64,000 nt of DNA. Source: Escherichia phage BP9. Position numbers and translations under genes: made by a program. Below, one piece after another: positions 6,469 through 54,697 of the stretch. The notes under the pieces were generated by a model. The model worked only from the letters and a program-made list of their open reading frames with translations, had not been told where the DNA came from and searched no databases. The stretch lies in the sequence record PP488543.1; one strand, given 5' to 3'. Position 1 is the first letter of the stretch. Every line of letters starts with the position of its first letter.

Positions 6469-7314
6469 GTGAAGAGAGCCGTATATCCAGTTGAGTATGA
6501 TCCTCTATTAAGAGTTTTCAACAATCAGTTAAGTTTTTATCAATTTTTAGCACAATATAACCCAGAAATCAATGTTGGTTTATCAGCCCTGCTGCCACCA
6601 ACAGAATTCGTTATCGGCAGTGTTCACTATCCATGTAGAACGATTGTAGACTTCTTCGAGAAGATTGCAAAACACACAGGCCTGCCAATTGATACTGGTA
6701 TTTCAACTATCCGTATGGGTGTTATTCTTCTGTTCTTCACAGAGAACCTTGATGAAAGCACTTTAACACTGCAAAGTGGGGATGTCAATATCACACTCAC
6801 CCCGTCAGTGTTTAAAGAGGTAGATGCGGCTTTCCAAGTTTCCGTGGCAGAGGGCCATCTATGGGACCCTGTAGGGATGCCTAAAAAGGTGACCATAAAC
6901 GATGAGCAATGCAACGTTGTTTATGAAGAAGATACCCAAACTTTCACCATTGAGTGGCCTAAGAAACGTTCTCAGGTTGTAAATCTTGGGCTGGTCTCTA
7001 CGATAGCTCCACCGCCTCAACCAGAGCCGGAGCCGCCTGTAGGTCCTACTGAACCTGGTGGTGGTGAAGAATCCCAAGGTCCGACTGTACCGGAGGGAGG
7101 CACTGAGCAGGATCCTGAACAGGCACAAGAATCAAGATCTTCTCGCAGTGATGTTGATGCCCTACTACAGCAGGCCGCAGCTCTTAACAACGAAGATGAC
7201 AAAAGTGGTTCAAAAGATGCACTCCAAACCTTCGCCAAAGAGCACGGTGTTACCTTAAGTAAGGCAAAAACTTTCCAAAATATGATGAAAGATTTTGAGG
7301 CTGCACTGGCATAA
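6469..7314 (+). CDS. hypothetical structural protein with Pro/Glu-rich linker
   Basis: 281 aa; GTG start with SD AGGAG; internal PPPQPEPEPPVGPTEPGGGEE linker suggests two-domain surface protein. Confidence 0.35.
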   Translation: MKRAVYPVEYDPLLRVFNNQLSFYQFLAQYNPEINVGLSALLPPTEFVIGSVHYPCRTIVDFFEKIAKHTGLPIDTGISTIRMGVILLFFTENLDESTLTLQSGDVNITLTPSVFKEVDAAFQVSVAEGHLWDPVGMPKKVTINDEQCNVVYEEDTQTFTIEWPKKRSQVVNLGLVSTIAPPPQPEPEPPVGPTEPGGGEESQGPTVPEGGTEQDPEQAQESRSSRSDVDALLQQAAALNNEDDKSGSKDALQTFAKEHGVTLSKAKTFQNMMKDFEAALA

Positions 7315-50896: not shown

Positions 50897-52378
50897 TTAC
50901 TTAGCGTACTCGATTAATTCCACAGTTTTACCAAAGCTAGGGATATAATTTTTATTATACCCTTCGGTGAGAACCCATAAAGTATCGTACTTTTTCCACT
51001 TGTTGTCAACAGCCTTTTGTTCAAAGTTATGCTCAAAGTATAGGTCGGTCAGGACGATGACATCTTTTGCATTTGGTATGTTGGCATCCAGATACTCGAA
51101 CACGCAAGCAGCTGTTGTGCCCCATGTTGAGTGGACCTCATAGTTGATCATTTCGTCTATGTTGCCGCGAGTATATACTTTAACCTCTCCGACTTCAGTT
51201 GACCAACAGAACATTGTAACCTTAAACTCTTTATACAGATTGCACAATCCGGTGATTTCATTGAACATTTTCTTTAAAGTTCTTTGAGAGATCGAGCCAG
51301 AAACGTCTAAAGCTACCACAATATCTATGGTGTTTTCCGGATTACGACCAGGAACAATAACGTGCTGGTTCTTGTTTATAGCCCCAACTTTTCGCATTGT
51401 GCTGGTCAAAGACCCAGATCGGCGACCAGGTTTTCTGTAGGTCAGTTCGGCCTTTCGTTTAGACAACATGCGTTGCTTAATGATGTCTATATAGTTGATT
51501 ACAGGCTTACCTCTGTTCTTGACAAACTCACGCACCGCCTCGGGGCAACGACCTCCGGAAGCTTGCATTGCTGCTTCCAGCATGTCACCAGAGTCTTGCA
51601 TGGCCTGATCTTTATCAGATTGGCTGATTACAGGTTGTGGCTGATCATACCCCATAGCCTTTCCAAGATCATCGCTGGTGCCACCGTTCCCACTCATGTG
51701 ATCATCGGTTTGTCGCTTATCCCCTTGAGAGTTCTCACCTTTACCGCTCTTACTTTTACCGTTATTCTGATCTCTTTGCTTATCAAGAACCGCATAGACG
51801 TTCTCAGCAATCCATCCATGAAACCTCATGTCGCAGTAGCAGCTGGCTAAGAAACCAAAAGGCTTACCTTTCACGAACGTAGTGCTTTTCCCCTTCGGGA
51901 AGAAAACACAGGGAGGCTTGCTAAAGTCAACCACAAGACCTGTGTTGATAACATGATCACAAGCAATATTAAACAGTTCCGGCTCGAAGCTTTTACCACG
52001 GACCAGGTGATCACAGATAATATGCCCCACCTCGTGTGACAGAAGAAAAGCCACCTCTTTCACAGATTTGGGAGAATAGAAAACCTCAGCCATCTCAAAC
52101 TGTTCGTCAGTTAGAGAAGCCTTAAGAATAGCCTTGCGTTCATCAGCCAATCCCATAATGAACTCAGGGCTGTAATAGATGCGTTTATGGTCGGTTGCCA
52201 TGGTGGAGCACCATGTGTGGTTTTCTACGAACTGCAATCCTGACAGCAGTGTGCCATAAAACGGCAGCTTTTCAAGGAGATACATACGTGCAGCCTGCAA
52301 CATTCTCAGGGCATCATCTTTCTGTGAGGCAATGATTTCTGAACTTCTGCTATCCATTAAAACTCCAGAAGGGGCCAA
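50897..52378 (-). CDS. VWA-domain protein with N-terminal HExxH metallopeptidase-like motif (CobT / DUF2201-like)
   Basis: 493 aa; HEVGHIICDHL motif; C-terminal VVALDVSGSIS MIDAS-like motif. Confidence 0.6.
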   Translation of the reverse strand: MAPSGVLMDSRSSEIIASQKDDALRMLQAARMYLLEKLPFYGTLLSGLQFVENHTWCSTMATDHKRIYYSPEFIMGLADERKAILKASLTDEQFEMAEVFYSPKSVKEVAFLLSHEVGHIICDHLVRGKSFEPELFNIACDHVINTGLVVDFSKPPCVFFPKGKSTTFVKGKPFGFLASCYCDMRFHGWIAENVYAVLDKQRDQNNGKSKSGKGENSQGDKRQTDDHMSGNGGTSDDLGKAMGYDQPQPVISQSDKDQAMQDSGDMLEAAMQASGGRCPEAVREFVKNRGKPVINYIDIIKQRMLSKRKAELTYRKPGRRSGSLTSTMRKVGAINKNQHVIVPGRNPENTIDIVVALDVSGSISQRTLKKMFNEITGLCNLYKEFKVTMFCWSTEVGEVKVYTRGNIDEMINYEVHSTWGTTAACVFEYLDANIPNAKDVIVLTDLYFEHNFEQKAVDNKWKKYDTLWVLTEGYNKNYIPSFGKTVELIEYAK

Positions 52379-52390
52379 TGGCCCCTGTCA

Positions 52391-53380
52391 TTATTTAACG
52401 TGTTTGAAAATACCTGCCAACTCGGTCATTGTCATGCGGGTGGTCTTCATAAGATCTGTCATAGCTTTCTCCATAATTGGAGATACTACCATAAAGTTAC
52501 CCTTGGTGAAACCTTTATTCCAGTCGGTCACTAATAGTGGTTTAAGTCCGACCCCGAGACGCTCACCAGTTAAAGCACAACATTTTCGAATGTACGTGCT
52601 CTTAAATTGACTGAATGACAGATCAACTTTCATACCTGCATCGTAGAACGTCTGACAATAGAAAGTGTAAGCTTTGGCAATCTCAACATCGTCAGGCAGT
52701 GCAGGAACCTCTTCTGTGAGCTCTTCTTCGTCCCCTTGAGGCTCTTTTTCCTCTTCGTAAGCCTGTTGCGCCACTTCTTTAATCTCCTCTGCTGCAGGCT
52801 CGTTTACAATGTCAGAAATGTGCTTGTTGGCTCCACGGTTAGCCATGAAGTTTTTAAAATCCTGCATTGGTGACATATCTTCCTCCCATTCTTCGTCAAA
52901 GAGTGCCAGTTTATCCTCTTCCGTCCCATATTGCAAGATGAAATCTTCAAAAGTGTAATCACCTTTCAATTTCTCCATGCGCTCTTCGCTCAGGTGGAGC
53001 ATCATCTGCTGGACAATTTTTCGATCAGTTTTGTCTTTAATCAAGATTGCGGTCTTTTTATCTACCAGGCAGTCTTTCAGAGAGTTACACCTCAATCCTA
53101 CCACACAACAGTTATCAATTGCGTAAGGACCTTCATCATCTATCCGCTCCAGAGATGGGTAGAAAGGATTCCCCAGCCCGTTTTCATCTGTGTACATGTC
53201 GAAAGGTATAAGGGTATAGTCGCATACCCCCTCTCCTAAAAGTTTTTTACCAAATAGGAGGTATTCTTCCCATGACAGGTTGAACTCTATATCCCGTTTC
53301 CGTGCATTATTCTGTTTGCGTCTATATTTTTTGAGCAGGCGCTCTAACTCTTCTGGTGTATAATATTTTTCAAGATTCAT
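52391..53380 (-). CDS. hypothetical early protein with Cys-containing N-terminal domain
   Basis: ATG at 53380 chosen because track TTG start 53446 lies upstream of the predicted promoter; first gene of minus operon. Confidence 0.4.
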   Translation of the reverse strand: MNLEKYYTPEELERLLKKYRRKQNNARKRDIEFNLSWEEYLLFGKKLLGEGVCDYTLIPFDMYTDENGLGNPFYPSLERIDDEGPYAIDNCCVVGLRCNSLKDCLVDKKTAILIKDKTDRKIVQQMMLHLSEERMEKLKGDYTFEDFILQYGTEEDKLALFDEEWEEDMSPMQDFKNFMANRGANKHISDIVNEPAAEEIKEVAQQAYEEEKEPQGDEEELTEEVPALPDDVEIAKAYTFYCQTFYDAGMKVDLSFSQFKSTYIRKCCALTGERLGVGLKPLLVTDWNKGFTKGNFMVVSPIMEKAMTDLMKTTRMTMTELAGIFKHVK

Positions 53381-53411
53381 GAGTTGTCTCTTGTGCTCTG
53401 TAGGTGAAGAA

Positions 53412-53440
53412 ATCTTATCAAGTGCCTCAACAGATGTCAA
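53412..53440 (-). promoter_or_regulatory. sigma70-type promoter for minus-strand early operon
   Basis: On minus strand: -35 TTGACA (plus 53435-53440), 17 bp, -10 TAAGAT (plus 53412-53417). Confidence 0.5.
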
Positions 53441-53453
53441 CCTCAAAAACGTG

Positions 53454-53482
53454 TTGACTTTACCCTAAATCCACGATATAGT
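53454..53482 (+). promoter_or_regulatory. sigma70-type promoter for plus-strand early operon
   Basis: -35 TTGACT 53454-53459, 17 bp, -10 TATAGT 53477-53482; -35 elements of the divergent pair form inverted repeat GTCAAC/GTTGAC. Confidence 0.55.
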
Positions 53483-53522
53483 GCACCCATTCGAAAGAAA
53501 ACGAACACAGGAGTACTTAATC

Positions 53523-54422
53523 ATGGCAAATCTTAACAGCTTTAGCACTCGGTGGAAACAAGATATCACAACCAATCTCTCAGCAGGCGATATCCTTTCT
53601 GCAATTTACGAGGCTTTGGATGATAAAGCTACTTCAAAAGCGGTTTGTACCAACCCACTAATTCCTGTAGTGATGAAGGTTATTGAGCGTAGATTGGTAT
53701 CTGGGTCTGATAAGTGGACATATTTAGATAATGAAGGACACACCTATTCCAATGGGTACGTCGATATAAAAGTAGAATACGCGGTATCATACCGCCGGAG
53801 CGGTTCTGTAACTTTCAACTTCTCTGGAGGTTTTCGATCTCTGGCTACCTCACCTTTTGTTTCCTCAGAGGAGAAGTATGAGCTTCCATTTCTTTGGATG
53901 ATGGCTAACGCGACAGGAAAAACCCCCGTTAGCATCCGAGTAAAATACAACTACAACGGATCTAGTAAGATCTATGCCGAGAGTGTCTCAGCAAGTTTTT
54001 ATTTTGTGATGGGGGATGGAATCCTCAAACATATAAAGATGTGCGATATGCATGATGTTATAAATGAAGTGACTGATAAGAATGTTCTGGTGAAGGATCT
54101 CAACAATTTTTATACACCCGGAGACTATTACGTCAGCCGTCCACTGTGCATCTTTAATGCCGCACACCCTCTAGGTGAGTATTTGATCGCCAATAGCGAT
54201 ATTGCCAATAACCGCTTCGAGGTAGCAAGAGTACAGAATGAGGTATTGACATCTTGCAAGAGCGGTGATAAGTTTACCGAAGAAGAGATGGGTGTTTTAG
54301 AAATGATGGGATATAAGTGTAGCCTTTGGGTAGATGAGGTGTTTAATGATTGCATCTATGGACAGGATATTTACCCATTAAAGAAGTATACTGATTCCAG
54401 TTTAATTTACGCGGAGATTTGA
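53523..54422 (+). CDS. hypothetical early protein
   Basis: ATG 53523 with SD AGGAG (track GTG 53481 overlaps promoter -10). Confidence 0.4.
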   Translation: MANLNSFSTRWKQDITTNLSAGDILSAIYEALDDKATSKAVCTNPLIPVVMKVIERRLVSGSDKWTYLDNEGHTYSNGYVDIKVEYAVSYRRSGSVTFNFSGGFRSLATSPFVSSEEKYELPFLWMMANATGKTPVSIRVKYNYNGSSKIYAESVSASFYFVMGDGILKHIKMCDMHDVINEVTDKNVLVKDLNNFYTPGDYYVSRPLCIFNAAHPLGEYLIANSDIANNRFEVARVQNEVLTSCKSGDKFTEEEMGVLEMMGYKCSLWVDEVFNDCIYGQDIYPLKKYTDSSLIYAEI

Positions 54423-54697
54423 CTATGATGAAGTCATGTGGTAGTGTATATTATGTTGGTGAGAATGTTCAGGCAGATAGTGTGTGGAAATCCATTAAGT
54501 CCACCACCGATGATGCCTTTCTGAGCGGGTTATGCTTTCCCAGCCCAGGGGACACTCTCCCTTACCCTGGAGATTTTGTTGTCAACAAGATGGACGGTTA
54601 TACCGTGTGCCTGATGGTTGAAAAAATCTTTTTAGACACTAGACACAATCACCGTCTTGTGTTAAAATTTCAAGAATGTAAAATGACAATTGCCTAA
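54419..54697 (+). CDS. hypothetical protein
   Basis: 92 aa; ATGA overlap with upstream gene. Confidence 0.35.
   Translation: MTMMKSCGSVYYVGENVQADSVWKSIKSTTDDAFLSGLCFPSPGDTLPYPGDFVVNKMDGYTVCLMVEKIFLDTRHNHRLVLKFQECKMTIA

Follow-up and report, generated by a model that had tools for sequence, protein, structure and literature searches.

Previously predicted promoters and the site in phage BP9

A bidirectional pair of promoters was predicted between genes 10 and 11 of the E. coli myophage rV5 (Kropinski et al. 2013, Virol J 10:76; PMC3606486), a phage for which four transcription units were proposed (genes 10-1-238-164, 11-26, 27-81 and 82-163) and whose 33 predicted sigma-70 promoters are spread over the genome, some of them before late genes. 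Table S4 of that paper lists P010 on the minus strand at 6636..6681, as CAAAAACGTG-TTGACT-TTACTCTAAATCTCCGA-TATAGT-GCACCCA, and P011 on the plus strand at 6685..6713, as TTGACATCTGTTGAGACAATTGATACGAT; P010 was found independently by MEME, and the product of gene 11 was called a probable Srd homologue (PMC3606486). In Certrevirus, also a genus of the Vequintavirinae, the putative early promoter consensus was given as AAAA(N3)TGTTGAC(N19)TATAAT, with an UP element (Buttimer et al. 2020; PMC7344957).

The stretch of DNA analyzed here, hereafter the window, consists of 64,000 nucleotides of the roughly 137-kb genome of Escherichia phage BP9 (PP488543.1). The back-to-back promoters that it carries are not new, this pair having already been predicted and published in 2013 for rV5, which is the type phage of the genus Vequintavirus. 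The BP9 and rV5 sites are homologous: they share the 17-bp spacers, the 13-bp A-tract gap between the -35 elements and the flanking genes, and they map onto each other base for base. The rV5 P010 string corresponds to window positions 53444-53489 and terminates at the base equivalent to 53489, while the RefSeq feature 'Sigma70-type promoter; P11' of NC_011041 (6685..6713) falls exactly on 53440->53412. The hexamers are identical but for one -10 base (TACGAT in rV5, TAAGAT in the window), and a few substitutions distinguish the spacers and leaders. The inverted repeat, the UP-like tract and the conservation of the site, all discussed below, drew no comment in the rV5 paper, and that study and ours are alike in being predictions. 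The plus-strand promoter of the window, AAAA-ACG-TGTTGAC...TATAGT, has the same UP-like tract and extended -35 as the Certrevirus consensus; the latter differs in coming from another genus, in a distance to the -10 that is, as written, one base longer and in not being described as back-to-back. Our search of the Vequintavirus and rV5-like literature found no start mapping, reporter assay or time-course transcriptome, and the sole RNA-seq paper found to mention Vequintavirus studied a Tequintavirus.

Two other systems are instructive for comparison. In bacteriophage lambda, PR and PRM are back-to-back sigma-70 promoters with three 17-bp operators, OR1 to OR3, and two repressors encoded beside them. 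The BP9 locus resembles this arrangement in that its predicted divergent starts, like those of lambda, are some 82-84 bp apart and head divergent phage transcription units. It differs from it in that the evidence here supports no operator other than the -35 elements themselves and in that the flanking genes are not repressor-like, neither protein matching a DNA-binding repressor family in Pfam or PHROG; the phage, moreover, is virulent. The symmetry-driven bidirectional promoters that Warman and colleagues reportedly described in 2021 are said to share overlapping -10 elements, with starts ~18 bp apart. Divergent transcription is tied to the sequence symmetry of promoter elements in that case as in this one, but each BP9 promoter has a -35 and a -10 of its own, and it is the -35s alone that are turned towards one another.

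The divergent junction and the start codons of its genes

The sole divergent gene junction of the window lies at 53380/53523, its single convergent junction being near 47.1-47.5 kb. The divergent junction is laid out as follows.

53381..53522, between the gp11 homologue (minus strand) and the gp10 homologue (plus strand): divergent intergenic region of 142 bp, from the ORF layout
52391..53380, minus strand: gp11 homologue, 329 aa, with an Srd-like N-terminal region; first gene of the minus-strand unit
53523..54422, plus strand: gp10 homologue of 299 aa, to which records give the label 'alpha 1-3 fucosyltransferase'; it heads the plus-strand unit
53509..53513, plus strand: Shine-Dalgarno sequence AGGAG, 9 nt before ATG 53523, from sequence

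The longest mechanical ORFs on the two strands begin at TTG 53446 (minus) and GTG 53481 (plus), both within the promoter region, and the original prediction had for this reason preferred the in-frame ATGs at 53380 (minus) and 53523 (plus), a choice that the comparison with relatives supports. The extension to GTG 53481 is interrupted by an in-frame TAG in nine of 13 relatives and by a 4-nt deletion in one more. The variable sites of the two ORF extensions are distributed over the three codon positions as 5/5/2 and 9/11/6, with no third-position bias, as against 9/4/20 and 5/3/14 in the coding parts, where there is a third-position excess. Distant homologues of the minus-strand protein read from ATG 53380 align starting at residue 1-4, the PHROG profile phrog_12338 spans residues 1-299 of the 299 of the plus-strand protein read from ATG 53523, and the Murica record has a ribosome binding site annotated at the place of the AGGAG listed above. 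Nearly all public annotations leave this 142-bp gap, and the starts at ATG 53380 and ATG 53523 are those of most public records; MaxBurger, FV3, Murica, APECc02, ECP26, rV5_ev158 and typing phage 14 all have an annotated gap of 142 bp, and the gap in the phiWec189 annotation is 138 bp. The analysis in this way establishes where the two genes truly begin, their mechanically called ORFs running on into the promoters. We note that 241Ecol014PP has the gp11 homologue begin far upstream, within the promoter region, and that gp11 of the rV5 record begins 14 codons after the ATG chosen in most other records.

Two predicted promoters facing apart

Scanning of the gap against the sigma-70 consensus, complemented by inspection of the sequence, placed the following elements in it.

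53454..53459, plus strand: -35 hexamer TTGACT, homologue of that of rV5 P010, 5/6 match to consensus
53477..53482, plus strand: -10 hexamer TATAGT of the same promoter, after a 17-bp spacer, 5/6 match to consensus
53489, plus strand: predicted transcription start, an A, the 7th base after the -10, placed by the usual -10 to +1 distance
53445..53449, plus strand: A5 tract, a UP-like proximal subsite at ~-44 to -40, between the -35 hexamers, from sequence
53435..53440, minus strand (53440->53435): -35 hexamer TTGACA, homologue of that of rV5 P011, 6/6 match to consensus
53412..53420, minus strand: extended -10 TGnTAAGAT, after a 17-bp spacer, the TG flagged by the scan
53405, minus strand: predicted transcription start, an A, the 7th base after the -10, placed from sequence

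The divergent pair put forward in the original prediction was recovered by the scan at the same positions, as TTGACT-17-TATAGT on the plus strand and TTGACA-17-TAAGAT on the minus strand. Both promoters match the consensus at 10/12 positions with a spacer of 17 bp, both -10 hexamers have the A at position 2 and the T at position 6, and each promoter is directed at the adjacent gene; the minus-strand -10 (TAAGAT, 53417->53412) accounts for only 4/6 of its consensus and carries in addition the TG of an extended -10. The -35 hexamers are adjacent, 13 bp apart, and transcription would run outward, as in a back-to-back divergent promoter pair; the core elements do not overlap. From this spacing we infer starts some 84 bp apart, with predicted leaders of 34 nt from A53489 on the plus strand and of 25 nt from A53405 on the minus strand. 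The proximal UP subsite of E. coli reportedly reads AAAAAARNR (a consensus attributed to Estrem and colleagues, 1999), and the A5 tract agrees with this sequence at 7/9 positions.

A lone consensus match is weak evidence for a promoter, such sites being no commoner in the phage than in shuffled sequence: the window holds 32 matches of 10/12 over its two strands, and the counts of consensus matches in 20 kb equal those obtained after shuffling. The chance of finding a 10/12 match directed at the adjacent gene on each strand of one 142-bp gap is ~8e-4 at the window's own rate (Poisson), and 200,000 Markov simulations put the joint chance of such a gene-directed pair at 3.7e-4.

Conservation of the pair among relatives

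Nucleotide searches (megablast and blastn) matched only relatives of at least 85% identity, 117 in number, and the wider comparison was made through protein-level searches. Positions 52300-54500 are 94-96% identical to 117 records of Vequintavirus, the genus of rV5-like myophages of E. coli in which the window itself belongs and which includes FV3, YN3, HMD-6 and MaxBurger, and the 401 bases around the gap are 100% identical to vB_EcoM_YN3. For the analysis of individual positions the window was aligned with 13 further members of the genus that are 85-99% identical to it; the 17 relatives compared for hexamers and spacers included three IMG/VR contigs.

The gap is the fastest-evolving part of this region, with 56 of 143 columns variable as against 22/131 and 33/128 in the flanking coding parts, and outside the hexamers it varies at the rate of the third codon positions of the flanking genes. 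Across the 14 Vequintavirus sequences, variation is seen at 2/24 hexamer positions, compared to 54/119 in the remainder of the gap (Fisher p=3.5e-4), and both of the variable hexamer positions are position 3 of a -10. Both -35 hexamers are invariant in the 17 relatives. The minus-strand -10 reads TAAGAT or TACGAT in Vequintavirus, and the TG before it is kept in 17/17 relatives. The A-tract is present throughout the 17 as A5 or A6, save for AAGAA in one of them (L016). The two spacers vary in sequence at 9/17 and 13/17 positions, and their length is 17 in all 17 relatives.

The three IMG/VR contigs (L011-L013; 3300045988_159287, _140627 and _157310) are viral contigs of 121-141 kb whose gp11 and gp10 homologues are 65% and ~28% identical, respectively, and which appear to form a sister clade that falls between Vequintavirus and the remaining Vequintavirinae genera. 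They retain both -35 hexamers, the 17-bp spacers, the TG, the A-tract and a gap of 13-14 bp between the -35 elements; their -10 hexamers differ (TATTCT; TAGTGT or TAATGT). The comparative analysis accordingly places the published rV5 P010 and P011 predictions under selection across Vequintavirus and this apparent sister clade. The match of the -35 and -10 elements to consensus, their spacing and orientation, the constraint that is specific to the hexamers, the invariant 17-bp spacer and the mapping onto P010 and P011 together uphold two back-to-back sigma-70-type promoters as originally predicted, and the pair is a real, conserved and ordinary feature of these genomes.

A proposed node of divergent transcription

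We consider it probable, at about 0.85, that the gap contains two back-to-back promoters for the unmodified sigma-70 RNA polymerase of the host, which would launch two divergent Vequintavirus units; this reading is made from sequence. The host holoenzyme would bind both promoters without phage factors, the imperfection of the hexamers being offset by auxiliary elements, namely the UP-like A-tract on the plus strand and the extended -10 TG on the minus strand. The P010 homologue, composed of the UP-like A5, a G at -36 and TTGACT-17-TATAGT, would start transcription near A53489 and drive gp10 and the genes beyond it, including those for a MoxR ATPase, SleB and rIIA. The P011 homologue, with its element set TTGACA-17-TGnTAAGAT, would start near A53405 and drive the Srd-like gp11 together with the metallopeptidase/VWA gene and those that follow it. 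With starts at this distance, the alpha-CTD zone of each polymerase would overlap the -35 and spacer of the other promoter, and the two polymerases may as a result compete with, or stimulate, each other via local supercoiling. For the engineering or therapeutic use of rV5-like phages, the locus represents a predicted compact bidirectional host-type promoter cassette of 84 bp.

Since no phage factor should be needed, both units are most likely expressed early, a timing that we infer from the promoter type. An Srd-like gp11 and gp10 as the first products, followed by rIIA on the gp10 strand, fits early expression. Early expression is nonetheless not automatic, as sigma-70-like promoters of the rV5 type also precede late genes. 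The view of the gap as probably 'the early control region' was overstated: with 33 predicted sigma-70 promoters over the rV5 genome, the pair is better described as one promoter node.

A conserved block in the predicted gp10 leader

One further part of the gap is conserved beyond the promoter hexamers.

53483..53507, plus strand: conserved discriminator and early leader GCACCCATTCGAAAGAAAACGAACA, ~3 variable columns, ~-6 to +19

In the 14 Vequintavirus sequences this block has ~3 variable columns, compared to ~45% of columns elsewhere in the gap. It contains the palindrome TTCGAA and is unique in the window; no structure was predicted for it and it had no Rfam match. The block might be constrained by promoter escape, or it might act as a binding site or as an element at the 5' end of the mRNA. 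That the gap holds a control element in addition to its promoters, bound by a phage or host factor through which the two early units are silenced or kept in balance, is in our opinion unlikely. The candidates for such an element may be the -35 repeat with the A-tract or, better, the leader block, and factor binding there might be connected with the Srd-like gp11 that the other promoter would express; if such an element existed, it would make the gap a true early switch of the Vequintavirinae.

RNA folding, applied to each leader and to the inverted repeat, gave nothing beyond shuffled sequences (z = 0.72, -1.71 and -1.72), and an Rfam scan of 53200-53700 at E<=1 returned no match. Riboswitch, attenuator and cruciform-type readings were dropped, no structure beyond shuffles having been found. 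Ideas of a regulon or of iterons were likewise given up, the leader block and the inverted repeat (at up to 1 mismatch) each being unique in the window.

One working promoter or two

A distinctly improbable alternative is that a single promoter is at work, most likely the one on the gp11 side, the other being a look-alike and gp10 being transcribed from elsewhere. The chance rate at which lone 10/12 matches occur in this genome and the rV5 RefSeq record, which annotates P11 alone of the pair, are both in keeping with this idea, as is the situation in more distant genera. The gp11 homologues of Seunavirus, Mydovirus, Avunavirus and Henunavirus are also found at a divergent junction, of 128-139 bp, and are preceded by a promoter of 10-11/12, a point in favour of the main reading, whereas the best leftward candidate is weaker (8-9/12) and has its -35 only 3-4 bp from the facing one. 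No gp10 homologue was detected by tblastn at the distant-genus loci, and in an Acinetobacter relative divergence is absent at the corresponding point. Judging from these predictions, it is only the gp11 side of the junction that is conserved across the subfamily.

Closer to BP9, however, the plus-strand promoter itself is constrained. Its -35 is invariant in the 17 relatives, its -10 varies at position 3 alone, a non-critical position (TACAGT in one of the 14 Vequintavirus sequences), and its spacer is the one that varies at 13/17 positions at constant length. MEME had found the site independently in rV5, and it bears the subfamily signature AAAA-N4-GTTGAC, which occurs twice in the window (0.3 expected); AAAA is present within -45 to -38 in 12 of 26 promoters of the rV5 list. 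Finally, gp10 has no further promoter-like site upstream of it, and the gene on the opposite strand leaves no alternative source of transcription. Two working promoters are on this evidence the reading that we retain.

The other copy of the signature in the window is at 50981-51018 on the minus strand, where it continues as TTGACA-17-GATACT (10/12). It is located within the 3' part of the metallopeptidase/VWA gene, facing the next minus-strand genes, and is a candidate internal promoter, predicted from sequence, that is not listed for rV5.

The inverted repeat between the -35 elements

53436..53458, both strands: inverted repeat GTCAAC-N11-GTTGAC, made up of the two -35 cores and the -36 base of each promoter

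The original prediction had singled out the symmetry of the -35 elements. An exact 6-bp inverted repeat is indeed present, GTCAAC at 53436-53441 and GTTGAC at 53453-53458, but it did not stand as a feature in its own right, given that its sixth pair fits the promoter consensus and is broken in 2/17 relatives and that the spacing is N12 in 2/17. If the repeat served as an operator, a dimeric regulator from the phage or from the host would bind across both -35 elements and switch the two early units off or on together, in the manner of the lambda repressor at PR/PRM. We hold this to be very unlikely, even though the repeat is placed where one protein could block both promoters, is a perfect 6-bp repeat in 15 of the 17 relatives, including the clade with 65% gp11 identity (GTCAAC-N11/12-GTTGAC in L011-L013), and has in one relative, L015, changed in both arms together (GTCAAT...ATTGAC). 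Five of the six bases of each arm are the -35 core, and the sixth is the -36 base, at which G is preferred across the promoters of this phage, as in the TGTTGAC consensus and in the rV5 promoter list (G 12/26, A 7, C 7, T 0; p=0.005 for the excess of G). L020 and L010 (ATTGAC) have lost the sixth pair, and the spacing of N11 seen in 15 relatives becomes N12 in L009 and L012 through a change in the length of the A-tract. The candidate -35 elements that face each other in the four other genera are separated by only 3-4 bp, the 64-kb window has no second copy of the repeat within 1 mismatch, and its half-site centres are 17 bp apart, which would not make a whole number of helical turns. The marks of a palindromic operator, which are symmetry beyond the needs of the promoters, a fixed half-site spacing and further copies or a nearby regulator, were thus not found in this locus. 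The repeat is best read as a geometric side effect of two (G)TTGAC elements facing apart, and not as a separate operator.

A second divergent gap in rV5, between genes 81 and 82 (NC_011041, positions 700-780 of the segment 66000-67400), also has facing -35 elements, TTTCAA-GTG-TTGACA. Its rightward TGTTGACA could be part of a promoter for gene 82, for which the -10 would be weak (CAGGAT after TGG). No promoter was found for gene 82 in the rV5 paper (PMC3606486). The facing -35 elements of that gap and of the present one look like a recurring compact design, of which the repeat would be a by-product.

That the gap is mainly a replication origin or some other DNA-level site in which the promoter-like hexamers are secondary deserves next to no credence: the GC skew changes sign and the cumulative skew reaches its minimum at 53.0-54.0 kb, and an A-tract lies between inverted repeats, but the skew flips also at the convergent junction near 47 kb and so follows the coding strand, as explained by gene orientation, iterons or repeated motifs were not found, and conservation is concentrated on the promoter hexamers and not on the flanks of the A-tract. 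GC skew was consequently rejected as an origin signal, as it tracks the coding strand everywhere and is uninformative.

Products of the flanking genes and neighbouring annotation

The PHROG matches of the gp11 homologue are to phrog_3118, phrog_4592 ('decoy of host sigma70') and phrog_1400 ('Srd anti-sigma factor'), and its matches to Srd-like and endonuclease families cover mainly the N-terminal ~100-200 residues. Pfam yielded no family for either the gp10 or the gp11 homologue, and a PDB sequence search returned nothing for the latter and a marginal match to FUT9 (E=1.3e-3) for the former. Depending on the record, the gp11 homologue is labelled 'anti-sigma factor', 'HNH endonuclease' or 'anti-termination', and in APECc02 it bears the fucosyltransferase label. 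The public labels of the two proteins are inconsistent and weakly founded.

Downstream of gp11, a GC-rich 7-bp hairpin, AGGGGCC-ATT-GGCCCCT, occupies 52370-52386, in the interval that separates the gp11 stop from the metallopeptidase/VWA start. On the minus strand, the one transcribed, TCTGGAGTTTTAATG comes next, and the hairpin is for this reason not a canonical terminator. A GGAG downstream of the hairpin serves ATG 52357 (MDSRSS...), and the mechanical start of the metallopeptidase/VWA gene at TTG 52378 is probably another over-extension. Finally, sixteen 'Campylobacter phage' records (MG0656xx), which list C. jejuni as the host, show 92-98% identity to BP9 across the region, which is likely to reflect host mislabelling or contamination.
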